Counted from the stretch's first letter, positions 4,135-56,230 are shown. The stretch: 64,000 bases of DNA from Candidatus Doudnabacteria bacterium RIFCSPHIGHO2_01_FULL_46_14 (GCA_001779925.1 MFEK01000010.1:19377-83376), one strand, 5' to 3'. Made by a program: numbers and translations. Notes: generated from the sequence alone by a model not told the origin.

Positions 4135-4280
4135 GTCTAAAACTCCTCCTGCTTTCTTGGAATTCTCTTCAGGTTGTATTTGCCAAAAAACGGCACCTTA
4201 AGAGACTTTAAACTATAGCACAAATACCGCAAAAAAACAAGAGCCGACGGCCGGCACAAGCGATAAATACCAAAATTATT

Positions 4281-4372
4281 CCTCCCCCTTGAGGGGGGAG
4301 GTTAGGTGGGGGTGAAAAACAACTCTTTATTACCACCCCTCCCTCAATCCCTCCCCCTCAAGGGGAGGGAAA
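4281..4372. repeat. repeat family A, locus R2 (inverted pair, tails inward)
   Basis: cctcccccttgaggggggagg-ttaggtgggggtgaaaaa ... ccacccctccctcaat-ccctccccctcaaggggaggg. Confidence 0.85.
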
Positions 4373-14811: not shown

Positions 14812-14840
14812 GTATTTGTTAATAAACTAATAGCTTGTTT

Positions 14841-15365
14841 ATGAATGAAGAAATGTCCGCCCAAGGCGGATCCGCCTCTGGCGGAAAAAAAGGTTCTACT
14901 TGGTTCTTGAGAGGGGTTCTTTTGATCATGGCGCTCATTGCCCTGGCTGTCGGTATTTTTGCGGTCCCTGCGATATACAACGCCACGCCAAAAGAATATC
15001 CAGTTGATATAAATTATCTCCGCTTATTTGTCGGCGGTTTATACCTCTCCATAATCCCCTTTTACGTGGCACTGTACCAGGCTCTGAAACTTTTGAACTT
15101 CATAGACCACGACACGGCTTTCTCGGAGGCTTCAGTGAGTGCGCTAAAAACTATAAAATACTCCGCAATCGCAGTTAGTGTTTTGCATGGCACAGCTATA
15201 CCATTTTTGTTTCAGATAGCAGAACTCGACGATGCGCCGGGCGTATTAGTGCTGGCCTTGGCCTTTACCTGCGCGCCTCTGGTTATAGCTGTCTTTGCAG
15301 CCGTGCTCGAAAAGCTGCTCCAGAACGCAATCAGCATCAAATCAGAAAACGATTTAACAGTTTAA
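14841..15365 (+). CDS. DUF2975-family membrane protein (paralog 1)
   Basis: 4-TM protein; start set to ATG 14841 (MNEEMSAQGGSASGGKK) matching the paralog at 15582; track ORF begins at TTG 14835. Confidence 0.55.
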   Translation: MNEEMSAQGGSASGGKKGSTWFLRGVLLIMALIALAVGIFAVPAIYNATPKEYPVDINYLRLFVGGLYLSIIPFYVALYQALKLLNFIDHDTAFSEASVSALKTIKYSAIAVSVLHGTAIPFLFQIAELDDAPGVLVLALAFTCAPLVIAVFAAVLEKLLQNAISIKSENDLTV

Positions 15366-15366
15366 T

Positions 15367-15570
15367 ATGGCGATCATCATAAACATAGACGTGATGCTGG
15401 CCAAGCGGAAAATGAGCGTCACTGAACTTGCGGAAAAAGTCGGCATAACCATGGCAAATATATCTGTATTGAAAAATGGAAAGGCGCGAGCCATCCGTTT
15501 CTCAACCCTTGAGGCCATCTGCAAGGCTTTGGATTGCCAGCCCGGAGATATTTTAGAATTTAAAAATTAA
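15367..15570 (+). CDS. XRE/Cro-C1-type HTH transcriptional regulator (YozG-like)
   Basis: MAIIINIDVMLAKRKMSVTELAEKVGITMANISVLKNGKARAIRFSTLEAICKALDCQPGDILEF. Confidence 0.8.
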   Translation: MAIIINIDVMLAKRKMSVTELAEKVGITMANISVLKNGKARAIRFSTLEAICKALDCQPGDILEFKN

Positions 15571-15581
15571 TAACCTATTTT

Positions 15582-16100
15582 ATGAATGAAAATATGTCCG
15601 CCAAAGGCGGATCCGCCTTTGGCGGAAAAAAAAGCTCAACAGTATTTCTACAGGTAGTAATTGTACTAATCGGAATCGTGACACTTGCAGTTATGATACG
15701 GTTTCCCTTGACCGAGGGGAGAGCCGCAAATTTGGACTTGTTTAGTATTTACGCTGATCCATTCCTGGTGTATGGCTACCTAGCGTCTATCGCATTTTTT
15801 GTTGCCCTGTATCAGGCGTTCAAATTACTCGGATATATCGGGCAAAATAAAGTATTCTCGCTAAACTCTGTGAAGGCTTTAAGGACTATAAAATATTGCG
15901 CAATCGTACTGAGCATCTTAATTGTGATGGCGGCAATATACATAAGGCTATCGTTTTCAGTTAAATCAGTTACAGATGATGATCCGGCCGGTTTTATTGC
16001 CGTAAGTATTGTGGCTACTTTTATTTCTGTCGTAATCGCCACGGCGGCGGCGATGTTTGAACGGATTTTACGAAATAATAATTCATCCCACAAATTATGA
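15582..16100 (+). CDS. DUF2975-family membrane protein (paralog 2)
   Basis: MNENMSAKGGSAFGGKKSST... N-terminus nearly identical to paralog 1. Confidence 0.55.
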   Translation: MNENMSAKGGSAFGGKKSSTVFLQVVIVLIGIVTLAVMIRFPLTEGRAANLDLFSIYADPFLVYGYLASIAFFVALYQAFKLLGYIGQNKVFSLNSVKALRTIKYCAIVLSILIVMAAIYIRLSFSVKSVTDDDPAGFIAVSIVATFISVVIATAAAMFERILRNNNSSHKL

Positions 16101-16864: not shown

Positions 16865-16940
16865 TGGCTCCGGGGGTGGGACTCGAACCCACGACCAATT
16901 GATTAACAGTCAACTGCTCTACCAACTGAGCTACCCCGGA
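16865..16940 (-). tRNA. tRNA-Asn (anticodon GTT), CCA encoded
   Basis: Reverse complement TCCGGGGTAGCTCAGTTGGTAGAGCAGTTGACTGTTAATCAATTGGTCGTGGGTTCGAGTCCCACCCCCGGAGCCA folds as cloverleaf with anticodon loop CT-GTT-AA. Confidence 0.9.
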
Positions 16941-16992: not shown

Positions 16993-17943
16993 TTATTGTT
17001 TGGTCAAAGCCTCCCTGTATGCAACTAGAACTTTCTGTCCGTGGGAGCCCGGATGGAATGACAGCTCATTGTCAGAAACAAGAATGTTCTCCTGCCTGCG
17101 GATGCGGTGCTTTTGATAGATTCCGAGCAGGTAATTCAAAACCGGAGCGATCGTATAGTCCAGGATCAACTCTAAAATCTTACCCGCGACGCTGAATCGA
17201 AAATCGAAAAATGGCACTGCCCTCTCGTACCGAACATTCGGCAGATAGCCTTTTATCCATTGGTTTTTTTGCCAAAATCTCTTGAGTGTATCGCCGCCGA
17301 TCACCGGCAGGAGACTGGCGTATTCGACCGCGGTATAAAGATTGCGATCATCGGTAATCTCGGTATCGTCCGCCAAATAATGGTTGAGGCAAAATCGGCC
17401 AGCAATTCTTTCCGCATACCTCCGCTGTCCCACCAGCTGAAAATATGCCGAAACCAGCGCGCGGGTCAGCCAAATGCGATTTTTTTTTGTGATGATAAAA
17501 AGATCAATGTCTGATCCGGACTCAGAGTTGAGTAGCGCCTGGGAGCCGGACAGGGCCACGGCCCGCACATATGGCAGGTGCCGCAAAAAACGCAAATATT
17601 TTTTGGTTTTGGCAAATCGCAGCAGCGAGATCTGGTAGCGGTGCTTTCTCTCGGCGATCAATTCTGCGCGACCGCGCAAAAAATACAGGCCTTCGCGATG
17701 CTCGACTTTGCCGGATAATTCTACGGTAATCGTGCTTTCGATTTCAGACAGGATTTCACCCCCACCTTTATCCTCCCCCCTCAAGGGGGAGGAATGGGAA
17801 CCGGTCCCCGCTTTTCCCTCCCCTTGAGGGGGAGGGACCGAGGGAGGGGTGTGAATTAGATAATTTTTCAGTTCCAGGCCCGTCAGCGCCATATCCTGCG
17901 TGTCAAAAAAAACCAGAGTGCTATAGGCTGAATTTTTCTGCAT
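16993..17943 (-). CDS. nucleotidyltransferase (Pol-beta superfamily, MNT-type GS...SDIDL) domain protein
   Basis: LSGSQALLNSESGSDIDLFIIT motif; start chosen at MQKNSAY (17943); repeat locus R3 translated in-frame near the N-terminus. Confidence 0.5.
   Translation of the reverse strand: MQKNSAYSTLVFFDTQDMALTGLELKNYLIHTPPSVPPPQGEGKAGTGSHSSPLRGEDKGGGEILSEIESTITVELSGKVEHREGLYFLRGRAELIAERKHRYQISLLRFAKTKKYLRFLRHLPYVRAVALSGSQALLNSESGSDIDLFIITKKNRIWLTRALVSAYFQLVGQRRYAERIAGRFCLNHYLADDTEITDDRNLYTAVEYASLLPVIGGDTLKRFWQKNQWIKGYLPNVRYERAVPFFDFRFSVAGKILELILDYTIAPVLNYLLGIYQKHRIRRQENILVSDNELSFHPGSHGQKVLVAYREALTKQ
17754..17855. repeat. repeat family A, locus R3 (inverted pair, tails outward) inside NTase CDS
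   Basis: tttcacccccacctttatcctcccccctcaagggggagg ... ttttccctccccttgagggggagggaccgagggaggggtgtgaa; encodes ...PPSVPPPQGEGKAGTGSHSSPLRGEDKGGGE... Confidence 0.85.
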
Positions 17944-18268
17944 CAATTTCTTTCCACTCATCCTCCATGTCATTCCATTTATAAACCTTGAAAGTATTGA
18001 CCAATTCGCTGTCGGAAAATTTATATTCCACACGTGCTCCCTGCCCCTGCTGATGACTGTAGTGGTACTTTTTCCCCTCCACCTTGGGCTTTTGGCCAAA
18101 CTGCAGTTTCATGCGCCCCAGTGGCCCCTCGAAAACAACAAACTCGGCTACCCCGAGCTTGACCGGTCCGTCACCGGTTTCGTGAATGAGATCTTCAGTG
18201 CCTTGATCCTCAAGCGCAAACTGCTTTTTCACGATATCTTTGATTTGTTCCCATTTTTCTGGTGTCAT
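17921..18268 (-). CDS. hypothetical protein (115 aa)
   Basis: ORF immediately upstream of and overlapping NTase gene. Confidence 0.4.
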   Translation of the reverse strand: MTPEKWEQIKDIVKKQFALEDQGTEDLIHETGDGPVKLGVAEFVVFEGPLGRMKLQFGQKPKVEGKKYHYSHQQGQGARVEYKFSDSELVNTFKVYKWNDMEDEWKEIDAEKFSL

Positions 18269-19385: not shown

Positions 19386-20879
19386 ATGGACAAATCTTCG
19401 GTCTTCTATCATTTCAAAAAGCACTACAAACCTGACCAGGTCAAGCTGCTTGAACGGGCTTATCAGTTCGCCTCACTGGCACACCAGGGACAAAAACGCA
19501 AATCCGGAGATGATTACATCATGCACTCTCTGGCTGTGGCCAATTACCTCGGAAACCATCTGCATATGGATATGGACACTGTAGTGGCAGGCATGCTACA
19601 CGATGTTCCGGAAGATACAAAAACTACCCTTCCGGAGATCCGTCAAAATTTCGGGCCGCAGGTGGCGTTTATGGTCGAGGGTATTACCAAGCTCGGAAAA
19701 ATCAAGCTACGAAACCAACGCGACGAAAACTATATTGAGACCCTGCGCAAAATGTTTTTGTCCATGGCCGCGGATATCCGCGTGGTGCTCATCAAGCTTG
19801 CAGACCGCCGCCACAACATGAAAACCATTGAGTTTCTCCCCGAAGAAAAACGAAAACGAATCGCCCGCGAAACTCTGGAGGTTTACGCGCCGATCGCCAA
19901 CCGCCTGGGAATGGGAGAGCTGACGGGCGAGCTGGAAGACCTGGCCTTTCCGGTGGTTTACCCCAAAGATTATGAATGGCTAGCCGGCCAGGTCAAAGAA
20001 CGCTATGAAGAAATGGCAATCTACGTGAAGCGCGTTCGTGATACCATTATAAAAAATTTCCACGAGGCGGGGATAAAATGGACTGATATTCACGGCCGCG
20101 CCAAACATCTCTATAGCCTTTATGAAAAAATCTTGCGTCCCAAATATGATCGGGACATTACAAAAATTTATGATCTGGTCGCCCTGCGCATCATCACGAA
20201 AAATCTGGAGGATTGCTATGCTACGCTCGGCGTCCTGCATTCCAAATACCGCCCTTTGCCGGGCCGTATCAAAGATTATATCGCCTTTCCCAAACCCAAC
20301 GGCTACCGCAGTATCCATACCACGGTCTTTGGACCCGAGGGCCGGGTGCTCGAGGTGCAGATTCGCACTGCGGAAATGCATTATGAGGCAGAATACGGAA
20401 TCGCAGCGCACTGGGCATATATTGAACACGGCAAACCAAAATGGGGTTACAAGATTCCCAAACAACTCGAATGGGTCACTCAGCTTCGCGATTGGCAAAA
20501 AGACATTGGCGGGAGTTCCGAGGAATTCATGGAAGCCCTGAAAATCGATTTTTTCAAAAACCGAATTTTTATTTTCACGCCCAAAGGCGAGGTCAAAGAC
20601 CTGCCCGAAGGGGCAACCACCCTCGATTTCGCGTTTGCGGTCCACACTGACCTCGGGCTCTATGCCATGGGCGCAAAAGTCAATGGAAAAATGGGCAAAC
20701 TCTCAGACGAACTTTCCAACGGCGATGTGGTGGAAATCGTCAAAGGCTCCAAGATCAATGTTTCCCGCGACTGGATGGGCGTGGCCCGCACCTCCAGCGC
20801 CCGCTCAAAAATAAAAGCCTACCTCAACCAAAACAACCAAGGCTGGGGCTTCCTGCCGGAATTTATCCGGAAAAAATAA
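19386..20879 (+). CDS. rel: (p)ppGpp synthetase/hydrolase, short Rel/SpoT homolog (HD + synthetase + TGS, no ACT domain)
   Basis: HD motif MLHDVPEDT; synthetase RIKDYIAFPKPNGYRSIHTTV; TGS IFIFTPKGEVKDLPEGATTLDFAFAVHTDLG. Confidence 0.85.
   Translation: MDKSSVFYHFKKHYKPDQVKLLERAYQFASLAHQGQKRKSGDDYIMHSLAVANYLGNHLHMDMDTVVAGMLHDVPEDTKTTLPEIRQNFGPQVAFMVEGITKLGKIKLRNQRDENYIETLRKMFLSMAADIRVVLIKLADRRHNMKTIEFLPEEKRKRIARETLEVYAPIANRLGMGELTGELEDLAFPVVYPKDYEWLAGQVKERYEEMAIYVKRVRDTIIKNFHEAGIKWTDIHGRAKHLYSLYEKILRPKYDRDITKIYDLVALRIITKNLEDCYATLGVLHSKYRPLPGRIKDYIAFPKPNGYRSIHTTVFGPEGRVLEVQIRTAEMHYEAEYGIAAHWAYIEHGKPKWGYKIPKQLEWVTQLRDWQKDIGGSSEEFMEALKIDFFKNRIFIFTPKGEVKDLPEGATTLDFAFAVHTDLGLYAMGAKVNGKMGKLSDELSNGDVVEIVKGSKINVSRDWMGVARTSSARSKIKAYLNQNNQGWGFLPEFIRKK
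20841..20879. repeat. direct repeat DR1 (39 bp, = last 12 codons + stop of rel)
   Basis: ggctggggcttcctgccggaatttatccggaaaaaataa; exact copy at 21535-21573. Confidence 0.9.
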
Positions 20880-20919
20880 GAACATTGACAGGACTGCCAA
20901 ACAAAATTAAACTAAAAAT

Positions 20920-21147
20920 ATGAAATTTACCCGTATTACAATCAATCCAGAAAAAATGGATGGCGTGCCCTGCATCAGGGATTTGCGTATTCCTGTAGCA
21001 ACAGTAGTGCAGATGACCGCTGAAGGCATGACTGCCCCAGAAATCATCAAGACTTTGCCTGATTTGCAGACGGAAGACGTTCGTGAAGCCTTGCAATATG
21101 CCGCAACCGCAGTGCAGGATCGCGTCATGCCCTATGCCCTGCCTTGA
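20920..21147 (+). CDS. DUF433 domain protein (putative antitoxin)
   Basis: 75 aa; ...[18 protein letters not shown]...; 4-bp overlap with DUF5615 gene. Confidence 0.7.
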
Positions 21148-21524
21148 TGAAATTTCTGATTGACAATGCGCTTTCTCCTCAAATCGCTGCTGGCCTGAAA
21201 AGCAGCGGTTTTGATGCTGTGCATGTACGTGATCGCCAAATGCAGTCCGCAACTGACGCGGATATTTTTGAATTCGCCAAATCCCAAAATCGAATCATTA
21301 TCTCCGCTGACACTGATTTTGGTAGCTTGCTCGCTTTGCGGCAAGAGATAAAGCCGTCCGTGATTCTGTTTCGGCGCGGAACACTTCGCCGTCCGCCAGC
21401 ACAACTGGCAATTTTGCTTGCCAATTTGCCAAAACTGAAAGAGTCGCTGACCAAAGGCTGTATTGTCATTCTAGAAAGCGGACGCATCAGGATCCGCCTC
21501 CTGCCTATCGGCGATAAGCTTTAG
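21144..21524 (+). CDS. DUF5615 (PIN-like) domain protein (putative toxin)
   Basis: [18 protein letters not shown]...[10 protein letters not shown]; classic partner of DUF433. Confidence 0.7.
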
Positions 21525-22367
21525 CTCACAAACTGGCTGGGGCTTCCTGCCGGAATTTATCCGGAAAAAATAACCGGCTCTTCCTCGCCCCTTGCGGGAG
21601 AGGATTGCAATGGCTGCCACCGACTCATCAGTGTTCATTTTTTTCAGCGCCGAAATAACATTGCGAAAATAGTTTGCTTCATCATAATTGTCCAAAAAGG
21701 CATCAACATTTTTCAAATCAACAATTTCTGCCAGGGCCGGATAAGGAACTCTGTCCTCATAAAATATTCGATTAAGGTACATTAGATTTTCGGGATTGTT
21801 TCCCATTTTTTGCACAACTGATGCGCAGGCCTGGTAAGCCGGTTTATTATCATATTTAGTCAGACCGTAAGAACCGGTTTCGTGCTTGCCAAATTTGACT
21901 AGCGATTCATGCGTGTTCATCAAAAAATCGCTTTTTGTTACCAAAGGATTGTCATCCTGCAAATCTTCAAGCAACTCGACTATTTTTTTAAAATCTATTT
22001 TGTCAAGCAAACTATTCATTTCTGTCAGCCACTGCTCCTCGGCAAACTCTCTCGATTCTGAATCTTGCGACCAGCTTAGCTTCTGTAATAACATTCTGCG
22101 CCTATTCCAATCTGTGGTGTCAGCAAGCTCGGCTTGGATATCATTCAGACTACTGGGTTCACTTTTTGCTTTCTCAATTAATTCCCGCCTCCTCTGCTCA
22201 ATCTCGGCCAGTCTTACTTGCTCACGCGCTCGGTATTCTTCTTCGCGTTTCCTCGATTCTTCCAACATGCGATCAAATTCTGGCGGACGACTATATATAG
22301 GTCGCCGCCCAGCAGATTCATTCTCTTTTTCAGAACCCGGATCATATCCTGGTATTTCTCTTCTCAT
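21471..22367 (-). CDS. hypothetical charged/coiled-coil protein; its C-terminus reads through DR2 into the TA cassette
   Basis: 298 aa, E/R/K-rich; last ~30 codons overlap DUF5615 gene and DR2 (..[13 protein letters not shown]..). Confidence 0.4.
21535..21573. repeat. direct repeat DR2 (39-bp exact duplicate of rel 3-prime end)
   Basis: Identical to 20841-20879; brackets the DUF433/DUF5615 cassette. Confidence 0.9.
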
Positions 22368-24541: not shown

Positions 24542-26069
24542 CGCTAGTAAAAATCAACAAATTTCTAGCTGGAAATTTTCGCAATCGCCAAAATAGGACG
24601 GCGTAATAAACAAAAATCCCTGCGACCGGCACGCCGAGCGCGACCTGAGCAAACGGGATTCGCGCGAAAAATTCCACCACCCAGATTTGAAATGCCAGAA
24701 TCCCCCAAAGCACAACAGCCAATATTTTCGCCACAGGTACATAAATCATACCGAGCACCCCGGCCGTAAGAGCCAAAAACATAGCATAAGGTACTGTCCA
24801 GAGGATCAGCACATTGACCACAATGGAAACAATAGAGAGGCGTTCAAAATAAAAGATGAGGAGAGGCAGAGCGAAAATTTGCGCAGCCATAGTGGAAGCC
24901 AGATTCTTGCGAAATTCCAAGATATTCGGCACCCATTGTAGTTTATTCTCAAACCATGAGCCAAGATAGATAAGCCCGGCTGTAGCCATGAATGAGAGCT
25001 GAAAACCCAAATCAAACCCCAGAATCTTGGGGTTTTCGAGTACCATAAGCGCAGCAACAAAGATCAGGGCATTCAGAGACACATAAATTCGTCCGACATT
25101 TAAAGCCGCAACCGCCAGCATGGCCATGACTGCCGCGCGAACCACAGACGCGTCCGCGCCGGTGATGACGACAAACGCGAGCACCAGCAAAAATGATAAA
25201 ACAAGGGCACTGCGCCGGCCTACATACTGCCGGGTTTTCAAAATATTCTGAGTAATAATCGACATATTATATCCAGAAATTACAATGATGTGGGATACAC
25301 CAACAGCAATCATAGCGTTTTTGAGATCTTCCGGAATCCTGTGCTTCACGCCGAGGATCAGGCCCTGGGCCAAAGCGTTATGCGGCTCTGGTAAAATTTG
25401 CGAGAGCACTCCCTGAAATCGATGCTTTATACTTAGCAGAGCCGCTTTCATCTTATTTCCTTGATCTTCCCCTATTTTTTCAATCTTTGGAAAACGCATC
25501 ACCGCATAAGTATCATAACGCGACAAATAATCTTTATAGGAAAACTCTTCGCTCACAAACGGCTCTTCGACTTTTCCTGAAAATTTTAATCTATCGCCGT
25601 ATTGATATTCCGGATATTTCCCGACATTCAACAAAATATTTCCAGTAAGCTCCCTCTCCTTACCCTCTTTCTCTTCCACTCCCCTCCCTTGCAGTGTCCG
25701 CCGCAGCCTTGCGCGGAGACTGGGAGGGGAGGGTGAAGTTACTTTCACTGTCAAATTCACCTTATCGCTCCTCACATCCGGCTCTTTCACTATTATCCCT
25801 TCCAGTTCAACTTCTTGCCCATAATATTTTCCAATAAAATTTTCTTGATCGGGAAAGCTCGCCTGATATCTTACCGCTCCAAAAAGCGCGACCAATCCCA
25901 AAAATCCCGCCAGCACAAACCTTTTATCACTCCACCAAATCGTAATTAGAATCAAAAAAAACATGGCCGCGATAGCCATGATATAGTAATTAACATACCT
26001 GCCCGCGCCCACCCCGGCCACAAAACTCAAACAGAAAAACAGAAAAATTTTAGATTTTTCGAATTTCAC
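24516..26069 (-). CDS. comEC: ComEC/Rec2 DNA-uptake channel (DUF4131 + competence domains), lacking the MBL domain
   Basis: Multi-TM 517 aa; ...GVSHIIVISGYNMSII...; repeat R4 in-frame in the N-terminal region. Confidence 0.7.
   Translation of the reverse strand: MKFEKSKIFLFFCLSFVAGVGAGRYVNYYIMAIAAMFFLILITIWWSDKRFVLAGFLGLVALFGAVRYQASFPDQENFIGKYYGQEVELEGIIVKEPDVRSDKVNLTVKVTSPSPPSLRARLRRTLQGRGVEEKEGKERELTGNILLNVGKYPEYQYGDRLKFSGKVEEPFVSEEFSYKDYLSRYDTYAVMRFPKIEKIGEDQGNKMKAALLSIKHRFQGVLSQILPEPHNALAQGLILGVKHRIPEDLKNAMIAVGVSHIIVISGYNMSIITQNILKTRQYVGRRSALVLSFLLVLAFVVITGADASVVRAAVMAMLAVAALNVGRIYVSLNALIFVAALMVLENPKILGFDLGFQLSFMATAGLIYLGSWFENKLQWVPNILEFRKNLASTMAAQIFALPLLIFYFERLSIVSIVVNVLILWTVPYAMFLALTAGVLGMIYVPVAKILAVVLWGILAFQIWVVEFFARIPFAQVALGVPVAGIFVYYAVLFWRLRKFPARNLLIFTSDVSQKAKI
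25677..25738. repeat. repeat family A, locus R4 (variant palindrome with 34-nt internal spacer) inside comEC
   Basis: cactcccctccc-ttgcagtgtccgccgcagccttgcgcggagactg-ggaggggagggtgaagt. Confidence 0.7.
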
Positions 26070-26491
26070 AAACGACTCCCGGTTTTACTCGCCTCCCCTT
26101 GCGAAAGGACATCTCCTCTTACTCCCCTCCCTTGACGGGAGGGGCTGGGGAAGGGTGGTGCGCAAAGTTTTCCAATTCTATCAAAGACACCTTCCCGGTT
26201 TTGCAAAACTTCGTTATTCCAGAATCGTAAAATTGCAAACCCCTGTGAGCTTAACCATTCGTCGCGAATCTTATCCTGTTCTAAAGTTTCATCTGCATGC
26301 TGGCCGCCGTCTATCTCGATGATCAATTTAACCGAAAAGCAAACAAAATCAACAATATAATTTCCGATTGGCTCCTGACGGCGGAATTTCGATCCAGAAA
26401 GTTGCTTTGAGCGAAGAAAATACCAGACGGCTTTTTCCGCTTCGGTCATCTGGTTTCTCAACTTTCTGACTACATTTGTTGTTTGTCTCAA
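26066..26491 (-). CDS. DUF559 (Vsr-like endonuclease fold) protein
   Basis: ...EPIGNYIVDFVCFSVKLIIEIDGGQH...WLSSQGFAILRFWNNEVLQN...; C-terminal 30 aa encoded by repeat R5; start codon abuts R6. Confidence 0.7.
   Translation of the reverse strand: MRQTTNVVRKLRNQMTEAEKAVWYFLRSKQLSGSKFRRQEPIGNYIVDFVCFSVKLIIEIDGGQHADETLEQDKIRDEWLSSQGFAILRFWNNEVLQNREGVFDRIGKLCAPPFPSPSRQGRGVRGDVLSQGEASKTGSRL
26092..26160. repeat. repeat family A, locus R5 (within 3-prime end of DUF559 gene)
   Basis: cctccccttgcgaaaggacatctcctcttactcccctcccttgacgggaggggctggggaagggtggtg. Confidence 0.75.
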
Positions 26492-30061: not shown

Positions 30062-30190
30062 TTCCCTCCCCTTACCGGCGGTCCCCCGAAAGCGTAATCG
30101 CTTTCGGGGTAGACTTGAGGGGGAGGGACTGAGGGAGGGGTGTGGTATTGAAGTTTCACCCCCACCTTGCCTCCCCCATCAAGGGGGAGG
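30062..30190. repeat. repeat family A, locus R8 (inverted pair; first unit carries a nested 40-nt hairpin insertion)
   Basis: ttccctcccctt[accggcggtcccccgaaagcgtaatcgctttcggggtagac]ttgagggggagggactgagggaggggtgtgg ... tttcacccccaccttgcctcccccatcaagggggagg. Confidence 0.85.
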
Positions 30191-30201
30191 AATAAAATCA
30201 G

Positions 30202-30519
30202 TCACAACTTCTTCAAACGATCAAGAACCAGGCGATAACCTCCCCTGCCGTGCTTGAGCCAATGCGCGACGCGGGTCACTGTGGACGTGCTGGTTTCGGC
30301 TTTATCGGCAATGCTCATATAAGTCATTTTGAGACGCAGCATACGAGCGATGCGAAAGCGCTCGGCCATTTCTTTAAGCTCTCGCATAGTCATGAGGTCG
30401 CGGAAAAAATCCTCGCATTCCTTGACTGTTTTCAACTTCAAAATCCCCTGGAACAGGGTCCTAGTGTCGTCGTTTTCCCAGCCGTACAGCTCGTCGTTCA
30501 ACATGAAAGAAAGCCTCAT
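30202..30519 (-). CDS. TrpR-like YerC/YecD-family DNA-binding protein
   Basis: ...LFQGILKLKTVKECEDFFRDLMTMRELKEMAERFRIARML... Confidence 0.65.
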   Translation of the reverse strand: MRLSFMLNDELYGWENDDTRTLFQGILKLKTVKECEDFFRDLMTMRELKEMAERFRIARMLRLKMTYMSIADKAETSTSTVTRVAHWLKHGRGGYRLVLDRLKKL

Positions 30520-30527
30520 TAATAATG

Positions 30528-30556
30528 CTATATTAGCATGTTAACACGCTAGTATA
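30528..30556. promoter_or_regulatory. 28-bp palindrome copy B (CTATATTAGCATGTTAACACGCTAGTATA), 8 bp upstream of YerC-like start codon
   Basis: Near-identical to 2568-2596; candidate operator. Confidence 0.45.
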
Positions 30557-30576
30557 GCCGTGTCAAGCCCTCTGAA

Positions 30577-30622
30577 TTTTCCCTCCCCTCAATGGGAAGG
30601 GATTGAGGGGAGGGGTGTATAA
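30577..30622. repeat. repeat family A, locus R9 (variant)
   Basis: ttttccctcccctcaatgggaagggattgaggggaggggtgtataat; its 3-prime end creates a TATAAT box 10 bp before the next gene. Confidence 0.75.
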
Positions 30623-35238: not shown

Positions 35239-38200
35239 GATTTATTATATTCCTGCCACGATTTAATTTTCAAGTCTTCCAATTTATAGGTCGTCAGAGC
35301 GCGGACAAAGGCGCGCGCGAGAAACAGATCCGTAAACAGTGGGGTGTTATTGTCCACGGTTGCCCGGCGAATGAGATGCCCGTCGGTAATGGTTGAGGCG
35401 ACATTACGCTGTTCATCAGGACTGCGCTCCGTCAGGTTAATCACAAACGCGACCTTTTTTTGGTTGATAAATTCCAGGACATTCAGCTTTCGCGATTCGT
35501 GGACTTTGTAGACTTTGGAGCATTTTACCCCGGATTTATTGAAAAAGTCGCACGTAGTATCAGTCGCGTAAATTTTAAATCCAGCTCTGAGAAGCGCTTT
35601 CGCGCTTTCCAAAAACCGTTTTTTGTTCATGATGCCGCCGAGGGACAAGAGCACGGCTTTTTTGTTGATAAACGGCACGGTAGCATAAACAGATTTGAGA
35701 AGGGCTTCGTCCGCATCATCACCAAAACACGCGACCTCGCCGGTGGAAGCCATTTCCACATGCAGGAGCGGATCCGCGCCTGCAAGCCTGGCAAAAGAAA
35801 ACTGCGGCGATTTTACTACAACGCTACTAGGATAAGGGATTTCAATCCTACGACTTTTACCATAGAACGAGGCCACGATCATTTCCGCAAAATTAACACC
35901 GGTGGCCTTGGAAAGAAGCGGAAAGGTTCGGGACGCGCGGAGGTTTGCTTCAATCACGTAAACCCGGTTGTCTTTGACCAAAAACTGCACGTTTAATGGC
36001 CCGGTGATGGTGAGGGCGCGAGCCAGGGCGGCCCCGACCTTCATGATCTTCTGTTCCGTGGAAGCAAAAACCCGCTGGGTCGGATAAACAATCGTCGCAT
36101 CTCCGGAATGCACGCCCGCATTTTCAATGTGTTCGGAGATAGCTTGCACCTGAATGCGGCCATTTTGCGCGACCGCGTCAAGCTCGATCTCCCGCGCGCT
36201 CGTGAAAAATTTGGAAATAGTCACAGGATGGGTCTTGTTAAGAGTCGTTGCTTTATTTACAAACCATTCCAGCTCGTGCTCATTGTAACAAACTGACATT
36301 GCCGACCCGGAGAGCACGTATGAGGGACGCACCAAAACCGGATAGCCCACCTCGCTTGCAAACTTTTGCGCCTCGGCCATATCCGTAAAACTGTTCCAGC
36401 GCGGCTGGGGGATGGCAAGCCTGTCTAGCAGCGCGGAAAATTTATTACGGTCTTCCGCCCGATCAATATTTTCGGCCGCGGTGCCGAGAAGTTTCGCCCC
36501 ATATTCAGAAAGAGCGTTGGCCAGGTTGTTCGGCGCCTGGCCGCCGACCGACACAACCACGCCTTCGGGTTTTTCAAAATCGAGAATCTCGGTCACTGTT
36601 TCAAATGACAGCTCCTCGAAATAGAGCCTTGCCGACATGTCGTAGTCCGTAGAAACTGTTTCCGGATTGCAATTAATAATGATCGACTGCCTGCCGTATT
36701 TCGGAAGCGCAAGCGCGGTATGGACGCACGACCAGTCAAACTCTACGGACGAACCAATATGATATGGGCCGGAACCCAAAACCACCACGCTTTTTTTACC
36801 AAGGGCCCTCACATCATGGTGCGAACCATTATAGGTCAAGTAAAGATAATTGGTTTTCGCCGGTACCTCGCCTGCCAGCGTGTCGATCTGAAATACCGAG
36901 GGCGTAACACGCAGTTTTTTGCGAAGCTTGCGGATCTCTGTTTCCGGCACATTCCTGATATGCGCTATGCGACGATCAGAAAACCCGAGTTGTTTGAGGT
37001 GCCAAAGCTCGTCTGTTTCCAGTTTCTTATTTCTGGCAAGTCCGAGCTCGGCCTCGACAATATTTTTAACGCGATAAAGAAACCATGGATCAATCCCAGT
37101 CAGAGCTTTGATTTTCCTGATCGGCACATTGCGTTTTATGGCTGAAGCCAGGGCAAATAGACGCTTTGGCGTGGGCACGCGCAAATAGCGCTCAAGCTCT
37201 TCCGGAGAAAAATTATTATCCGTTACGCCTTCCACACGGCCATGGAGCATGCGCACGGCTTTCTGCAGAGCCTCCTCAAACGTGCGGCCAACGGCCATAA
37301 CCTCGCCCACGCTCTTCATGGCACTGCCGATTTTTTCCTCGGCCCCGCGGAATTTTTCCAAATCCCAGCGCGGGATTTTCACTACTACGTAATCAAGCGC
37401 TGGTTCAAAAAAAGACTGGGTAACCTTTGTAACTTGATTCTGTACATCAAGAAGAGATTTTCCAAGGGCAAGTTTCGCGGCTACGTATGCGAGCGGATAA
37501 CCCGTGGCTTTCGAAGCCAAAGCCGAAGATCGGGAGAGGCGGGCGTTGACCTCTATAACTTCAAAATCAAATCCACCCCCACCCCGCCTCCCCCCTCGAG
37601 GGGGAGGAATCCTTCTGTACTTCCCTCCCCTTGAGGGGGAGGGACTAAGGGAGGGGTGAGGGTTTACCGCATATTGAACGTTGCACTCGCCGACTATTCC
37701 CAAAGAACGCACGATTTTTATGGAAGCCTCGCGCAACAAATGATATTCGTCATTGGTCAGGGTCTGGCTCGGCGCCACCACAATCGAATCACCGGTATGG
37801 ATGCCGAGGGGATCGAGGTTTTCCATGTTGCAGACAGTAACGCAATTGTCATAGGCATCCCGAACCACTTCGTATTCAAGCTCTTTGTAGTGATGTAGAT
37901 ATTTTTCTACGAGAATTTGCGAGGAGATAGCGAGCGCGTCTCTTGCAATCTTTTCTAATTCCTCCCTACTCCGCGCCATCCCAGATTTTTGTCCACCGAG
38001 CGCATAAGCCGCTCTGACCATGACCGGGTAGCCAATATTTTTGGCAATCTTTAACGCCTGCGGTAAATTTGTAGCCGCCTTGCTTTTCGGCACGGAAATA
38101 TTTATTTTTTTCAAATGATCAGCAAATTTCTGACGATCTTCAGTAAGAACAATGGCCTCAATAGGGGTTCCGAGCACTGCTACGCCATATTTTTTCAGAA

Positions 38201-38546: not shown

Positions 38547-39646
38547 TCCAATTTCTTTATAAATTCATCGAAAATCCAGCCAGTGTCGAGCGGGCCGGGG
38601 TGAGACTCGGGATGAAACTGCACAGACATGAACGGCAAATGCTCGTGGATAATCCCTTCGTTGGTTTTGTCATTGACATTCACAAACCAAGCCCGAAAAC
38701 CTTTAGGGATTTTTTTGACCGCAAAACCGTGATTTTGCGTGGTGAGATAAGCGCGCTTAGTACCGACCAGAATGGCCCCGTGGTTTTGCCCGCGGTGGCC
38801 GAATTTTAGCTTATAAGTATCTCCGCCAGCGGCCAGAGTGAGAATCTGGTTACCAAGACAAATACCGAGAATGGGAATTTTTTTTTCTAAAGCAATTTTG
38901 GTAATCGCAATCGTTCTCGTGGCCATCTTCGGATCGCCCGGGCCATTGGAAATAACTATACCGTCAAACTTTAACCGCTTGGCAAAAATATCATAGTCCC
39001 AAGGCACAACTGTCACGCGGATTTTTCTTTTGACCAGTTCGCGGATAATATTCTGTTTTACGCCGCAATCGAAAACCACAACTGTCTTTCGTCCGGAACC
39101 GGATTTTACTATTCGTTTTGTGGAGACCTCTGCAACCAAGTTACGCAAATTAGGATCTGCAAAATCACCCCCACCTAACCTCCTCCCTCGAGGGGGAGGA
39201 ATCCGCGATTTTCCCCTCCCTGGAGGGGAGGGGTTGGGGGAGGGTGAAAATGAGATTTTGCCTAGCATTACACCCTTTTCCCGCAATTTTTTCGTAAGCG
39301 CTCTGGAGTCTTTGATTTCCAGGGCTGGGATATTTTCCGCAGCTAGCCACTGCGCTAACGTCCGCCGCGAAGAATAATGCGACGGCGTATCTATATAATT
39401 AGATACTATCAATCCCGAAACTTTGATGCTGGCTGATTCCCAAACTTTTTTGTCTGGCACGCCATAGTTCCCGACCAGCGGATAAGTGAGTACCAAAATC
39501 TGCCCTTGATACGACGGATCAGTGAGGCTTTCCGGATATCCAACCATTCCCGTGGCAAAAACCACCTCACCAGAAACACTCCTCCGCGCACCGAAGCTGG
39601 TCCCGATTAATTCGGTATTATCTTCTAAAATTAGGCGTCCTAGCAT
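38543..39646 (-). CDS. carA: carbamoyl-phosphate synthase small (glutamine amidotransferase) subunit
   Basis: GATase triad region ...GICLGNQ...; R12 in-frame (..SPSPNPSPPGRGKSRIPPPRGRRLGGGDF..). Confidence 0.9.
   Translation of the reverse strand: MLGRLILEDNTELIGTSFGARRSVSGEVVFATGMVGYPESLTDPSYQGQILVLTYPLVGNYGVPDKKVWESASIKVSGLIVSNYIDTPSHYSSRRTLAQWLAAENIPALEIKDSRALTKKLREKGVMLGKISFSPSPNPSPPGRGKSRIPPPRGRRLGGGDFADPNLRNLVAEVSTKRIVKSGSGRKTVVVFDCGVKQNIIRELVKRKIRVTVVPWDYDIFAKRLKFDGIVISNGPGDPKMATRTIAITKIALEKKIPILGICLGNQILTLAAGGDTYKLKFGHRGQNHGAILVGTKRAYLTTQNHGFAVKKIPKGFRAWFVNVNDKTNEGIIHEHLPFMSVQFHPESHPGPLDTGWIFDEFIKKLE
39165..39250. repeat. repeat family A, locus R12 (inverted pair) in-frame within carA
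   Basis: tcacccccacctaacctcctccctcgagggggagg...ttcccctccctggaggggaggggttgggggagggtgaaaa. Confidence 0.85.
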
Positions 39647-41016: not shown

Positions 41017-42186
41017 CTATTGATTATCATGTATTTCTAACGGGGCGAGTCTATGATTTGCTCCAACAACTTCTTTAACTGACCGAAATCCATCAGCTTC
41101 CAATAATTTTACCAAACCCCGTTTAATTTTTTTCGGCAACGAAGGACCTTCATAAATCATACCCGTATAAATTTCCACGAGGCTTGCGCCAGCGCGGATC
41201 TTTTCGTACGCATCCTCAGCGGAAAAAATCCCCCCTGCTCCGATTATCGGTACTCGGCCTTCAAGCTTTTTGTAAAGATAACCGATCACTTCAGTAACTC
41301 TCTTGGCAATCGGGCGGCCAGACAAACCGCCCCCGCCCATGCCCTCAGTGGCAGCGGTATTAGTCGCAATAACCCCGTCAATCTTTGTTTCCAAAACAAT
41401 CTCTGCAATATCATCAAGCTCACCGTCAGTCAGATCAGGTGAGATTTTGAGAAGCAAAGGCCGCCACCCCCACCTAACCTCCTCGCCTCGCCTTCGCTCG
41501 GACGAAGCGGGCCCCCTCAAAGGGGAGGAATTCGTTTGTATTTCCCTCCCCTCGAGGGGGAGGGCTGGGGAGGGGTGATTCAATTTCTGTAATTCCATAA
41601 GCAAATTCCTCAGCTCCTCTTTCCCCTGTAATTCCCGCAGTCCCGGTGTATTTGGAGAACTAACATTGACCACCACATAGTCGGCCAAGGGCGCTAATTC
41701 TGTAAATCCCGTGGCATAATCGCGCAGAGCCTCCTCGTTCGGCGTAATTTTATTTTTTCCTAGATTGACCCCGATCACAAAATCGCGCTTCTCAAGTCTT
41801 TTCAAATTTTTCGCCACTGCCATTGCGCCCATGCTGTTAAATCCCATCCGGTTGATGATCGCCTTATCCGCATCCAGACGAAATAGTCGTGGTTTGGGAT
41901 TGCCCGGCTGCGGCTCAGGGGTCACAGTCCCCACTTCAATAAACCCAAACCCGAGCGCGGCCATGAACCGCGCAAAGCCGCCGGATTTATCATAGCCAGG
42001 TGCAAGGCCGATCGGATTTTTGAATCTGACTCCAAAGACTTCAGTCTCAAGCGATGGATGTTCGTACCGAAACAACGGCGAAAACACTTCGGAAAGTCCC
42101 GAAAAATTCCTGCCCAAAGCCGCCACAGCATTGTGCATGGTTTCTGGCTGGATAGTAAATAAAATCGGCCGCAAAAGTTTATACAT
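41017..42186 (-). CDS. pyrD: dihydroorotate dehydrogenase (class 2-like, with N-terminal extension)
   Basis: FKNPIGLAPGYDKSG..., FIEVGTVTPEPQPGNPKPRLFRL; R13 in-frame. Confidence 0.85.
   Translation of the reverse strand: MYKLLRPILFTIQPETMHNAVAALGRNFSGLSEVFSPLFRYEHPSLETEVFGVRFKNPIGLAPGYDKSGGFARFMAALGFGFIEVGTVTPEPQPGNPKPRLFRLDADKAIINRMGFNSMGAMAVAKNLKRLEKRDFVIGVNLGKNKITPNEEALRDYATGFTELAPLADYVVVNVSSPNTPGLRELQGKEELRNLLMELQKLNHPSPALPLEGREIQTNSSPLRGPASSERRRGEEVRWGWRPLLLKISPDLTDGELDDIAEIVLETKIDGVIATNTAATEGMGGGGLSGRPIAKRVTEVIGYLYKKLEGRVPIIGAGGIFSAEDAYEKIRAGASLVEIYTGMIYEGPSLPKKIKRGLVKLLEADGFRSVKEVVGANHRLAPLEIHDNQ
41464..41578. repeat. repeat family A, locus R13 (inverted pair; first unit with nested hairpin insertion) in-frame within pyrD
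   Basis: cacccccacctaacctcctcgcc[tcgccttcgctcggacgaagcgg]gccccctcaaaggggagg...tttccctcccctcgagggggagggctggggaggggtga. Confidence 0.85.
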
Positions 42187-46328: not shown

Positions 46329-46369
46329 TTCACCCCTCCCTCAATCCCTCCCCCTCAAGGGGAGGGAAG
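46329..46369. repeat. repeat family A, locus R14; supplies the last codons and stop of gene 46355..46852
   Basis: ttcacccctccctcaatccctccccctcaaggggaggg; minus-strand reading gives ...RFLPSP-stop. Confidence 0.85.
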
Positions 46370-46852
46370 AAAACGGGGATCATATCGCTTTACTAACTCG
46401 AAACTCCCAAACATCACTCCTGCATAAAACAAATCCCCGAGGAGAGTATTACGGAAAAATGGGAGGGCGTTTAGGTAGGATTGGATTTGGCCGGAAAGAT
46501 CATGGCTGTACATAGTTGGCTCGTAAAGGAAAACTAAGTTTGTAATTAGATAAAAGAGAGCAGAGCTGGCCACTGTACCGCCAATCATATTTAGCACACT
46601 CTTATTATTTCTCAGCCATAAACCAATAAGCCCTGACAAAATAAAACTGCTGTAAACCGTGGCTCGCGACTGCCACGAATCAAATCCAATAAAATAATCT
46701 GAAACGACCATGGCGGCGACTGGTACAAGCAATGCAAATTTTTTATTGAGATAAGTGCCGCCGAACAATGCGATAGCAGAAATAGGAGCGAAGTTTGCTG
46801 GGTGAGGCAGGAATCTTAAAATGGCACCAATGAGGACTAAAATATACTCCAT
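46355..46852 (-). CDS. small multi-TM membrane protein (DUF6580-like)
   Basis: ...LRFLPHPANFAPISAIALFGGTY... N-terminus; 5 TM. Confidence 0.45.
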   Translation of the reverse strand: MEYILVLIGAILRFLPHPANFAPISAIALFGGTYLNKKFALLVPVAAMVVSDYFIGFDSWQSRATVYSSFILSGLIGLWLRNNKSVLNMIGGTVASSALFYLITNLVFLYEPTMYSHDLSGQIQSYLNALPFFRNTLLGDLFYAGVMFGSFELVKRYDPRFLPSP

Positions 46853-52519: not shown

Positions 52520-52602
52520 TTCCCCTCCCTCGAGGGGAGGGGTAAGGGGAAGGTGATATTTAATTTTCCACCCCCACCTAACCTCCCCCCTCAAGGAGGA
52601 GG
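52520..52602. repeat. repeat family A, locus R18 (inverted pair, tails inward) between nrdR and nrdJ
   Basis: ttcccctccctcgaggggaggggtaaggggaaggtga...ttccacccccacctaacctcccccctcaaggaggagg. Confidence 0.85.
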
Positions 52603-52615
52603 AATACATACACAA

Positions 52616-54684: not shown

Positions 54685-54751
54685 CACATGTCGAGATTGG
54701 AGGATCTCGACATGTGTGATTTTTTAAAAAATCCCGACTTTTGGTCGGGAT
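54685..54751. terminator. tandem hairpins: perfect 13-bp stem (cacatgtcgagat/atctcgacatgtg) + T-run, then atcccgac-ttttg-gtcgggat; bidirectional
   Basis: Direct reading. Confidence 0.65.
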
Positions 54752-54758
54752 TAATTAT

Positions 54759-54800
54759 TTCATCTTCTTCCTGATAAACGCCGGGGTGTCGAATTCTTCG
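54759..54800. repeat. degenerate duplicate of the ftsZ 3-prime end (39/41 identity, 1 indel, to 56235-56276)
   Basis: ttcatcttcttcctgataaacgccggggtgtcgaattcttcg vs ttcatcttcttcctgataaacgcggggatgtcgagttcttcg. Confidence 0.8.
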
Positions 54801-54801
54801 G

Positions 54802-55221
54802 TTACTTTTGTGGAAACATGAAGGAAAAAGAGCTAGGGTGAACGATTGGAATGTTTCGAAATTGTCTCAGTCGAAGCAAATGTTTGTCCATTGATACTAT
54901 TAAATTTGCTCCTGCGGCTAAAGCGCATTCCAAAATTTTGTCATCATCTGGATCGTCCTTGATTACCTGTAAGGTTTCCTTCGGAATAACTTGGTGAATA
55001 TATTCATCGATAATAATCCGCAGATTTGTAACTGTCCTGTGGTCTGCCAATTTCTCATTTACCCAAATTTGTAATTTTTCTTCGATTTCGTCTTTGATGT
55101 CAGGAGAAATAAATACTATATAATTAAAATCCGGGCTGAAAATTTCCCGAAACATCCGAAAAACGAATCCGCCTTCCCGTAATGCGGCCAGATAAATATT
55201 TGTGTCTAGTACAACGCGCAA
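54802..55221 (-). CDS. PIN-domain (VapC-like) toxin
   Basis: MRVVLDTNIYLAAL...; acidic residues D6, E?, D typical PIN. Confidence 0.75.
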   Translation of the reverse strand: MRVVLDTNIYLAALREGGFVFRMFREIFSPDFNYIVFISPDIKDEIEEKLQIWVNEKLADHRTVTNLRIIIDEYIHQVIPKETLQVIKDDPDDDKILECALAAGANLIVSMDKHLLRLRQFRNIPIVHPSSFSFMFPQK

Positions 55222-55224
55222 AGC

Positions 55225-55464
55225 TTAACCAAAATACTTTTCTACGTCATCATCAGTTTTGATCCCTAGCTTTTCAAATGCCGGGGCAAAGCCCTTTTGA
55301 ACCTGTGACCATTGGGACAAAAACAGCTGATAACGCAGGGTTTCTTTTACATATTGACTCACGGGGATATCCTGCTCTTTGGCATACCGAATCAGTTCCC
55401 GCCGTAAGGATTTTGGCAATGATACACTTAAAATTTCGGTCTTTTCTCGTTTTATACTTGGCAT
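55225..55464 (-). CDS. ribbon-helix-helix (CopG/VapB-like) antitoxin
   Basis: 79 aa, ...ILSVSLPKSLRRELIRYAKEQDIPVSQYVKETL... RHH pattern; 3 bp upstream of PIN gene. Confidence 0.65.
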   Translation of the reverse strand: MPSIKREKTEILSVSLPKSLRRELIRYAKEQDIPVSQYVKETLRYQLFLSQWSQVQKGFAPAFEKLGIKTDDDVEKYFG

Positions 55465-55475
55465 AACTTAAAAAT

Positions 55476-55520
55476 TATTATTCTGTAATAATACTATATT
55501 ATTCTGTAATAATTGTCAAG
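55476..55520 (-). promoter_or_regulatory. putative TA promoter/operator: two direct repeats TATTATTCTGTAATAAT 21 bp apart overlapping TTGACA-18-TAGTAT (minus strand)
   Basis: Repeats at 55476-55492 and 55497-55513; -35 rc of 55515-55520, -10 rc of 55491-55496. Confidence 0.5.
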
Positions 55521-55632
55521 GGCAAGAAAAGAGCTCGATCCATAATGGTCGAGCTACCTGTCCATCCGGTCAGGTTCGGTTAAATCACAACAGAGTCTGT
55601 GCCTCTCGTCTGATAGACTTTCACGCAGATAT

Positions 55633-56103
55633 TTAAAACTGCTTGGCAGGACGCAGCATCGCTTCGAGTTTCTCCCTTTCATTGTTTAACCCCCAAGTCG
55701 CCATTGCTGCGGCGCAATCATAGATCATGTAAGGGAATCTCTTGCCCCAAACACCCTCGCCTATCACTGACACGAAAGTTTCGAGCGCGATCTGTTTCGC
55801 CTTTATTTTCGCTACCAGGTAAATAAGATCATCCATAGCATCAGGAGGAAAATCATCCACTGCTGCCGTTAAGATCATTTGACGAACTGCCTCGCAGAAA
55901 GCTTGCCGTGCCTCCGTAGACAGTCTATCAAACAGTGTTTTGAGGGCATCGAGATTCGATTCATACCCCCATATGCCAATTTCCCGGAAGCCGAAAGGGT
56001 CGCGAAGTCTGACACTGAGGTAATACTGGCGGCGCAAGCCACGATCTAGCCATGACTTGAAGTCATCGGCCTGATATCCGTTTAGCTCTAACAAAGTTGC
56101 CAT
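55633..56103 (-). CDS. hypothetical protein (156 aa), GC-rich
   Basis: Between ftsZ and the PIN/RHH pair; no family recognised. Confidence 0.4.
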   Translation of the reverse strand: MATLLELNGYQADDFKSWLDRGLRRQYYLSVRLRDPFGFREIGIWGYESNLDALKTLFDRLSTEARQAFCEAVRQMILTAAVDDFPPDAMDDLIYLVAKIKAKQIALETFVSVIGEGVWGKRFPYMIYDCAAAMATWGLNNEREKLEAMLRPAKQF

Positions 56104-56230
56104 ACTTGCCTCCTGTCTATTGCACTAGTCGGTACATAGCTTTGCATTGCTCCTCCTAACGCGAAATCATAAGAACAACTAAAAATAGCACTTCTGTGCT
56201 ATTTTGTAAAGCCGTCGCCGGATAATAATT

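Follow-up and report, generated by a model that had tools for sequence, protein, structure and literature searches.

In the genome of the groundwater organism Candidatus Doudnabacteria bacterium RIFCSPHIGHO2_01_FULL_46_14 (GCA_001779925.1), a minimal type II toxin-antitoxin (TA) operon, consisting of a DUF433 antitoxin gene and a DUF5615 toxin gene, stands directly behind the stop codon of the stress-response gene rel and between two exact copies of the last 39 bp of that gene. We analysed this locus within a stretch of 64,000 nucleotides (MFEK01000010.1:19377-83376), referred to below as the window, whose numbering is used for all coordinates. Comparison with related genomes points, with high confidence, to an insertion behind rel that is specific to this lineage and duplicated its target, because the relatives hold a single rel end that continues directly into the sequence found downstream of the second copy. 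For the complete explanation, in which the operon entered right after the rel stop codon with a 39-bp target duplication and was joined and retained by the mechanism proposed below, we judge the chances to be somewhat better than even.

The rel terminus in two copies

The target gene, rel, encodes a RelA/SpoT-type (p)ppGpp synthetase/hydrolase of 497 residues (19386-20879, plus strand; Pfam HD_4, RelA_SpoT and TGS) and is intact. A repeat search found the 39-mer GGCTGGGGCTTCCTGCCGGAATTTATCCGGAAAAAATAA in two exact copies on the plus strand, at 20841-20879 and 21535-21573, offset by 694 bp and enclosing an insert of 655 bp (20880-21534). The first copy (direct repeat 1, DR1) is the functional end of rel, comprising its last 12 codons and the stop codon, while the second (DR2) is contiguous with the ancestral DNA downstream of rel, as judged from the alignment with the closest relative, L009. 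Even with up to three mismatches allowed, only these two copies occur in 64 kb, hence the 39-mer is no dispersed high-copy repeat, and a control with 100 shuffles gave no match at that tolerance. The initial annotation of this DNA had proposed that the last 12 codons and stop of rel are exactly repeated and that the end of the target gene was regenerated; both proposals hold, as the copies agree at 39 of 39 positions and rel keeps its full 497 residues with DR1 as its terminus. Rel orthologues at 72-91% identity have an identical GW.F.LPEF.RKK C-terminal tail, and a block of rel that is conserved at the nucleotide level in all relatives begins exactly at the left edge of the repeat. The 39-mer includes the palindrome CCGGAATTTATCCGG. 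Extending the repeat leftward with mismatches, which sets CTCACAAACT against CTCAACCAAAACAACCAA, was unconvincing.

Some assemblers use a k-mer size of 39, and a repeat of that size could in principle have joined a foreign fragment to this contig during assembly or binning. We give this explanation practically no weight. Both copies lie 694 bp apart in all seven of the contigs that are long enough, which stem from independent assemblies (MEGAHIT k141 and one from the Joint Genome Institute among them) and whose flanks match the window at 99.6-100% identity along as much as 13.5 kb; the same structure in seven independently assembled contigs excludes an artefact. In addition, the repeat copies at a second locus in the window, described below, have diverged (43/48 identical), and diverged copies are not producible by assembly. 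No empty allele was found within the same population: the contigs that carry identical rel or cassette proteins all contain the insert and are close to clonal.

Content of the cassette

The insert carries two adjacent, co-oriented genes on the plus strand, both scoring far above the curated thresholds of their families. The first (20920-21147) encodes a DUF433 (COG2442) antitoxin of 75 residues (Pfam PF04255, 73.6 bits against a cutoff of 23.6, E = 1.1e-20), and the second (21147-21524) a PIN-like toxin of 125 residues from the DUF5615 (COG4634) family of the Mut7-C group (PF18480, 90.8 bits against 23.8, E = 6.6e-26, with an additional match to PIN_10). The core residues are retained: in an alignment with 14 homologues the toxin keeps all 33 invariant columns, including D6, D37 and D57, and within its SADTDFG motif S53, T56, D57, F58 and G59 are invariant and A54 and D55 nearly so. 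The antitoxin has a weak match to a DUF433 protein of solved structure (PDB 2ga1), and a sequence search found no solved structure for the DUF5615/COG4634 branch to which the toxin belongs. Reading function from sequence, we take the cassette to be an intact type II TA module whose toxin is a predicted RNase. The initial annotation was right that the 655 bp hold only a DUF433 and a DUF5615 gene, as the Pfam matches confirm, and needs correction as to their overlap of 4 bp. Homologues and the public gene call place the toxin start at the ATG at 21147 (MKFLIDNA...), where it overlaps the antitoxin by 1 nt (TGATG); an overlap of 4 nt results only if an upstream TTG at 21144 serves as the start.

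Pairs of a DUF433/COG2442 antitoxin and a PIN toxin form a recognised type II TA family (PMC2701414, PMC3834315, PMC5499597), of which VapBC10 of Synechocystis is a studied example (PMC3834315), and DUF5615/COG4634 has been placed in the Mut7-C group of PIN-like nucleases (PMC5499597). As in VapBC10 and in VapBC45 of M. tuberculosis, a DUF433 DNA-binding antitoxin precedes an abutting PIN-like toxin of the Mut7-C group; unlike in those systems, the toxin here comes from the DUF5615/COG4634 branch.

Non-coding DNA inside the repeats amounts to 40 bp on the left of the gene pair and 10 bp on the right. The left part contains a putative promoter, TTGACA-17-TAAACT (20885-20913, plus strand, 10 of 12 positions matched), whose -35 box lies 5 bp from DR1 and which ends 6 nt upstream of the antitoxin ATG. 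Since the promoter stands so close to the ATG and no Shine-Dalgarno sequence is present, the antitoxin-toxin transcript is probably leaderless, unlike related cassettes, which have a leader with a Shine-Dalgarno sequence. The right part, CTCACAAACT (21525-21534, plus strand), is the spacer from the toxin stop codon to DR2 and forms the right end of the insert. A 17-mer covering the -10 box, spacer and start codon, ATTAAACTAAAAATATG (20906-20922), has no other copy in the window and recurs exactly in L009 (2671-2687), about 100 bp downstream of rel and ahead of an unrelated open reading frame (ORF) for a 99-residue coiled-coil protein. The rel promoter of L009, ATTATACTGATAATATG, has the same general form with three mismatches. 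The 17-mer may be a borrowed native promoter of this locality or, equally well, a leaderless promoter consensus typical of the clade.

The nearest relatives of the toxin, at 66-69% identity, lie outside the bacteria of the candidate phyla radiation (CPR), in Syntrophus, other deltaproteobacteria, Nitrospirota and cyanobacteria. Genome and metagenome scans for the same cassette elsewhere returned nothing above 69% amino-acid identity, so that a search for it with different flanks came back empty at any closer level. Among 15 billion sequences no protein reached 90% identity outside this population, and the clusters at 90% hold members of the population only. The DUF433-DUF5615 family is absent from phages, and its plasmid homologues are only about 32% identical.

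Empty sites in related genomes

Relatives of the host were traced to contigs through Rel orthologues at 81-91% identity. Four of them (L009, L012, L014 and L015) have one rel end each, and no second copy of the rel end was found in any of the four, where the best matches are at null level. An unoccupied site with a single copy, which the initial annotation had proposed to look for, thus exists. In L009 (assembly GCA_964349925.1), a hairpin resembling a repetitive extragenic palindromic (REP) element comes next after the rel stop codon. Window positions 21534-21607, which comprise DR2 and its right flank, align with L009 2530-2608 at 86% identity, and the window becomes colinear with L009 once 694 bp are removed. 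The insertion of a TA cassette at the rel 3' end, as originally suggested, is borne out by this restored colinearity. The description of the event as recent suits the full identity of the repeat copies; it does not extend to an arrival from a sampled donor, as no protein at 90% identity or above exists elsewhere in the sequences searched.

A diverged REP-like palindromic element (21577-21603, no strand assigned; repeat family D3, also identified in the alignment with L009) follows DR2 and, on the minus strand, reads as a hairpin followed by a T-run that lies within DR2. Being common to the window and L009, this element is ancestral. An orphan reading frame of 298 codons without a Pfam hit, ORF298 (21471-22367, minus strand), converges on rel and reads through the hairpin, DR2 and then a further 64 nt (21471-21534), overlapping the toxin 3' end by 54 nt. 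Reconstruction of the empty site gives it 284 residues (ending ...PQPWLFWLR) and an overlap of 61 bp with rel; in its present form 21 different terminal residues stand in place of the last 7. The earlier observation that the minus-strand gene runs through DR2 into the cassette is therefore correct, and a search for homologues that might show its native C-terminus found none. Since a convergent ndk follows rel after 52 bp in L010-L013, we regard the cassette and ORF298 as additions to a variable rel-ndk junction.

Mobility genes and classes of mobile element

Our search for recombination genes covered the insert, the gene tables for 6 kb on either side of it, and the 40 largest ORFs that the window has outside the locus, which were scanned against Pfam. 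None of these held an integrase, a transposase or a tyrosine or serine recombinase. No terminal inverted repeats join the ends of the insert, no tRNA gene is present at the locus (the two tRNAs of the window are at 16865-16940 and 62000-62076), and the locus has no Rfam match. The initial annotation had ruled out a classical transposon target-site duplication, and we concur: the hallmarks of DDE or other transposons, namely inverted repeats, a transposase and a short duplication, are lacking, and 39 bp is far too long. An integron gene cassette is likewise not what we see, given that there is no attC, no IntI/attI platform and no cassette array in the window; by our reading of the sequence, the 39-mer is rel coding sequence without a GTTRRRY or RYYYAAC box.

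The same annotation had preferred a site-specific integration resembling those at attachment (att) sites, for which these searches provided no support: neither the insert nor the part of the window that they covered yielded a recombinase that could serve the element. On this view, a non-autonomous unit brought its own copy of the rel terminus and was integrated by a recombinase supplied in trans, or by RecA acting on the 39 bp in a circular intermediate; the gene end would have been restored in the way known from phages and genomic islands at the 3' ends of tRNA and protein genes. We regard att-type integration as possible and, all things considered, unlikely. As only 40 bp and 10 bp flank the two genes, there is little room for the arm sites of a recombinase. 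Further evidence on this point comes from other loci and is taken up below.

A second cassette at the end of ftsZ

A comparable arrangement occurs at a second gene of the window, all of it on the minus strand. The gene ftsZ (56231-57388; 385 residues, identical to P0122; Pfam Tubulin and FtsZ_C) has its functional terminus in copy "a" of repeat family D6 (56232-56279), and a second copy "b", identical at 43 of 48 positions, lies at 54756-54803. The Pfam scan and the sequence show that the second insert (54804-56230) contains, in minus-strand order, a hairpin, an orphan ORF156 (55633-56103), a promoter with a repeated operator-like ATTATTACAGAATAATA, a CopG-like antitoxin (55225-55464) and a PIN_3 toxin (54802-55221). 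Copy b begins inside the stop codon of the PIN_3 toxin and is followed by a hairpin with a T-run that resembles an intrinsic terminator (about 54726-54750). The empty site is represented by L181, from the same assembly as L009, in which the order is ftsZ, terminator, nrdR.

Two other relatives have occupied sites between ftsZ and nrdR with different contents: between its a and b copies, L177 has two unannotated ORFs and a pair made up of a 79-residue ORF and a PIN_3 gene, and L179 has a pair resembling HigB(Gp49)/HigA(HTH_3). Copy b has the same left boundary in the window, L177 and L179, and in the window and L179 it has derived substitutions in common as well. Given this common boundary and the shared substitutions with different contents, one old duplication of the ftsZ end has persisted while its content changed. 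These observations lend plausibility to an explanation in which the repeat at rel also came first, made by an earlier insert or a local duplication, and the TA cassette was swapped in later by homologous exchange, using either the repeats themselves or the genes on both sides. In the classification of Furuta et al. (PMC2853133), "chance insertions between repeated sequences" form a class of their own. At rel, however, the copies are identical at 39 of 39 positions and the repeat is absent from four relatives, the closest one included, with no sign of an older slot, and the insert fits tightly, beginning 5 bp before the -35 box and ending 10 bp after the toxin stop codon. For the rel cassette we thus attach a rather small probability to a repeat that preceded it.

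The rel and ftsZ ends have in common the 14-mer TTTATCNGGAARAA, a stretch coding for FIRKK that has no exact match in the 64 kb outside the four repeat copies. It need not be a recognition site, since the shared C-terminal peptide accounts for it. The Rel proteins of the clade end in LPEFIRKK, close to the C-terminal peptide of FtsZ (20850-20879 and 56231-56260; alignment A1). That both TA insertions lie at look-alike Rel and FtsZ termini may reflect a target preference, or a functional mimicry of the FtsZ tail by the Rel tail.

As a separate observation, the DNA that follows rel (L009, L014, L015 and L010-L013) and that which follows ftsZ (L176-L181) differs in every Doudnabacteria lineage examined. 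Some have small orphan ORFs there, others a methyltransferase or TA pairs, and others nothing; both junctions are hot spots of gene gain beside essential genes.

Flanking repeats at homologous cassettes across phyla

We collected 160 loci with homologous DUF433-DUF5615 cassettes, 103 of which have flanks of 400 bp on both sides, and used 602 positions shifted within the same loci as controls. Exact flanking direct repeats of at least 18 bp are present at 13 of the 103 cassettes and at 3 of the 602 control positions (odds ratio 29, p = 2.7e-9); with mismatches allowed, the count rises to 15/103 against 3/602. The repeats are 26-148 bp long; each is present in exactly two copies at its locus, and those of different loci are unrelated. 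When L067, L068 and L083 are counted as one event and L131 and L138 as another, and array-like loci are left out, about eight independent cases remain.

As at rel, the repeats cover gene ends wherever a neighbouring gene could be identified. In L146 the repeat covers the end of an RNase H gene and stops 1 nt past the stop codon, and in L036 that of a histidine phosphatase gene, stopping 5 nt past the stop codon; in L138 and L131 it covers the end of HlyD, in L149 that of a convergent pseudouridine synthase, in L134 that of a convergent ABC ATPase, and in L064 the start of the downstream gene. In half of the loci concerned (6/12) the second repeat starts 8-15 bp after the toxin stop codon, with 40-156 bp of promoter DNA on the other side. 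Unrelated repeats of 26-148 bp around homologous cassettes in other phyla appear more compatible with a long target duplication than with a dedicated att site. This recurrence is evidence that insertion with long target duplication, so far known for restriction-modification units, is a recurrent mode of insertion for TA cassettes.

Some loci were rejected as support. L067, L068, L083 and possibly L119 resemble cassette arrays separated by repeats: their near-identical flanking repeats of 73-148 bp have a common CATCCATAAAAAA.TTGG.C, and in the first three further repeat pairs separate neighbouring small ORFs, while L119 has only one flanking pair. Ahead of the first repeat, L067 and L068 have different DNA, and the sequence of L083 starts at that point. 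These four loci may be integron-like or other cassette arrays.

The closest clade of cassettes, of the Syntrophus/Smithellaceae type (L016-L026, L030-L034, L039, L040 and L096-L100), is 85-97% identical in DNA amid unrelated genomic contexts and has sharp ends, the similarity extending from about 115 bp before the antitoxin ATG to about 20 bp past the toxin stop codon. The cassette 5' region recurs as a degenerate copy of about 50-60 nt in the 3' flank of L019 and L020 (z = 7-10). From its sequence, the Syntrophus-type cassette has the look of a discrete mobile unit, perhaps with a core site. The window 39-mer also contains CTTCCTG, a motif discussed below (about 0.004 by chance), which we rejected as a crossover junction because identity between the copies runs 8 nt to the left and 24 nt to the right of it.

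Weighing the explanations

Several points weigh against the favoured explanation or speak for the alternative of att-type integration. At four loci the end of the repeat lies 0-5 nt past the upstream stop codon (exactly at it for rel and ftsZ, 1-5 nt beyond it in L146 and L036), a regularity expected of an element that carries a copy of the end of its target gene. Both targets in the window share TTTATCNGGAARAA, which could reflect a target preference, and the palindrome in the rel copy and the coincidence of the left repeat edge with the conserved rel block favour the same alternative. The motif CTTCCTG(A/T)AA, 10 bp long, is conserved at both ends of the Syntrophus-type unit and hints at site specificity at least in that clade. 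All flanking repeats that we observed are at least 26 bp long, and about 26 bp is the length at which homologous recombination becomes efficient. Different cassettes have occupied one slot at ftsZ; as the repeat there is old and its cassettes were exchanged, a repeat can outlive its founding event, and the present cassette at rel need not be the creator of its repeat. Finally, the nearest empty sites belong to other species, with rel DNA 77-83% identical, rather than to conspecific strains of the same population; for the four relatives with one rel end each, the range is 74-83%.

Against att-type integration stand, besides the missing recombinase and the short non-coding arms, the following observations. 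The sequences and lengths of the repeats are unrelated between genomes, and TTTATCNGGAARAA is explained by the peptide FIRKK. No donor with a rel-like end is known. Moreover, the first copy of a target borne by such an element would itself require an illegitimate event. We therefore retain insertion with target duplication as the favoured explanation, at the strength given at the outset.

According to this favoured explanation, the insertion duplicated 39 bp, leaving rel with its full 3' end in DR1 and placing the old end, together with the REP-like hairpin, behind the cassette as DR2. A linear fragment, foreign or relocated, would have been joined at two illegitimate junctions 39 bp apart on two sister or template strands, either through staggered breaks with fill-in or through template switching at a fork stalled beside the hairpin. 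At such a packed gene junction, insertions that delete sequence would be lost and those that duplicate it would survive. Recombination of direct repeats would ordinarily remove a short insert that they flank; loss of this cassette would free the stable toxin from its antitoxin, and the module would thereby protect its own insertion. The sequences show the insertion, the duplication, the lack of mobility genes in the window and the recurrence; the route of joining and the role of addiction we infer, and hold with moderate confidence.

A more far-reaching proposal is that TA pairs of several families are self-contained mobile units that enter gene termini and duplicate 26-150 bp of target by an undescribed route, the duplicated gene end then serving as a reusable landing slot for swapping cassettes, as at ftsZ. 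Entry could depend on a recruited host function, or on the DNA-binding antitoxin and PIN-like nuclease of the pair itself. We consider this proposal improbable on present evidence.

Comparison with known systems

The closest parallel is the "insertion with long target duplication" of restriction-modification units, recognised by genome comparison (Nobusato et al. 2000, Gene 259:99; Furuta et al. 2010, PMC2853133). In those cases the repeats exceed 30 bp, no other mobile element is present and the empty site holds a single copy; some repeats overlap the 3' end of a gene, and the hosts are mostly naturally competent (PMC2853133). The rel locus has each of the features described by Furuta et al. 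2010: a unit between repeats of more than 30 bp, a single-copy empty site, no mobility gene found in the window and a non-dispersed repeat. In both, an addictive gene unit without transposase or integrase lies between host-sequence repeats that are unique in the genome, present once in the empty site of a relative, variable in length from case to case and able to overlap a gene 3' end. Hosts of the restriction-modification insertions are often naturally competent, and the present genome encodes ComEC (comEC). The differences are that the cargo here is a TA pair with a toxin predicted to be an RNase, and that the empty sites come from sister species instead of the same species. DNA breakage by the restriction enzyme has been proposed as the common cause of the restriction-modification insertions (PMC2853133). 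Because the TA toxin is a predicted RNase, DNA cleavage by the unit itself cannot drive insertion here, and therefore the property held in common with restriction-modification units would be addiction, not DNA cleavage. For TA modules, our literature search turned up no report of this mode of insertion.

Other systems share fewer features. Phages and genomic islands that integrate at att sites in tRNA, tmRNA or protein genes, as well as their cis-mobilisable derivatives without an integrase, likewise have a repeat that is a gene terminus, an intact gene and an element starting right after the stop codon; unlike them, the rel cassette has no integrase in or near it, measures just 655 bp, hardly any of which could serve as non-coding arms, and shares no att sequence with related cassettes elsewhere. 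Integron TA cassettes are similar as small units of promoter and TA genes with a tight 3' boundary and a flanking repeated sequence, which here is rel coding sequence instead of attC. The insertion sequences IS1630 and IS1634 of Mycoplasma, with target duplications of 19-26 bp (cited in PMC2853133), also go beyond the usual 2-14 bp, but encode a transposase and have terminal inverted repeats, neither of which is present here.

Other features of the window

Directly upstream of comEC, and in the same operon direction, lies a gene with a DUF559/Vsr-like endonuclease fold (26066-26491) that is missing at this position in L010-L013, where hisS comes after comEC. The REP-like element behind DR2 belongs to a dispersed family of G/C-rich palindromes of about 40-45 nt with the form CCTCCCC..TCAAGGGGGAGG, found at 2509-2564, 4277-4371, 17753-17856, 21564-21608, 30103-30621, 37568-37663, 39160-39252, 41489-41584, 46331-46386 and 52563-52607; two copies (17757-17838) are in frame within an ORF at 16993-18099. 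A further repeat, of 81 nt and 80% identical between its copies (14819-14899 and 15560-15640), heads two DUF2975 genes around a small HTH_3 gene and looks like a tandem pair of paralogues rather than a target duplication.

Implications for the movement of toxin-antitoxin loci

TA loci are patchily distributed and are called mobile, and for those outside plasmids, phages, integrons and transposons there is no accepted account of how they enter a genome. The rel locus offers a clean and datable footprint of such an entry, consisting of a host gene end, a cassette and again the host gene end, and this footprint is repeated at a second gene within 64 kb. Over many phyla, it is present at about one in seven related cassettes, compared with about one in 200 control positions. 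Its presence around TA pairs of the RNase type points to addiction as the factor common to these modules and restriction-modification units, and addiction may protect inserts that would otherwise be removed by repeat-mediated deletion. If the view of TA pairs as self-contained mobile units were true, they would form a new class of minimal mobile element and would answer the question of how "orphan" TA loci move. The locus also shows that, in the reduced genomes of CPR bacteria, selfish cassettes find harbour at the ends of essential genes (rel and ftsZ).

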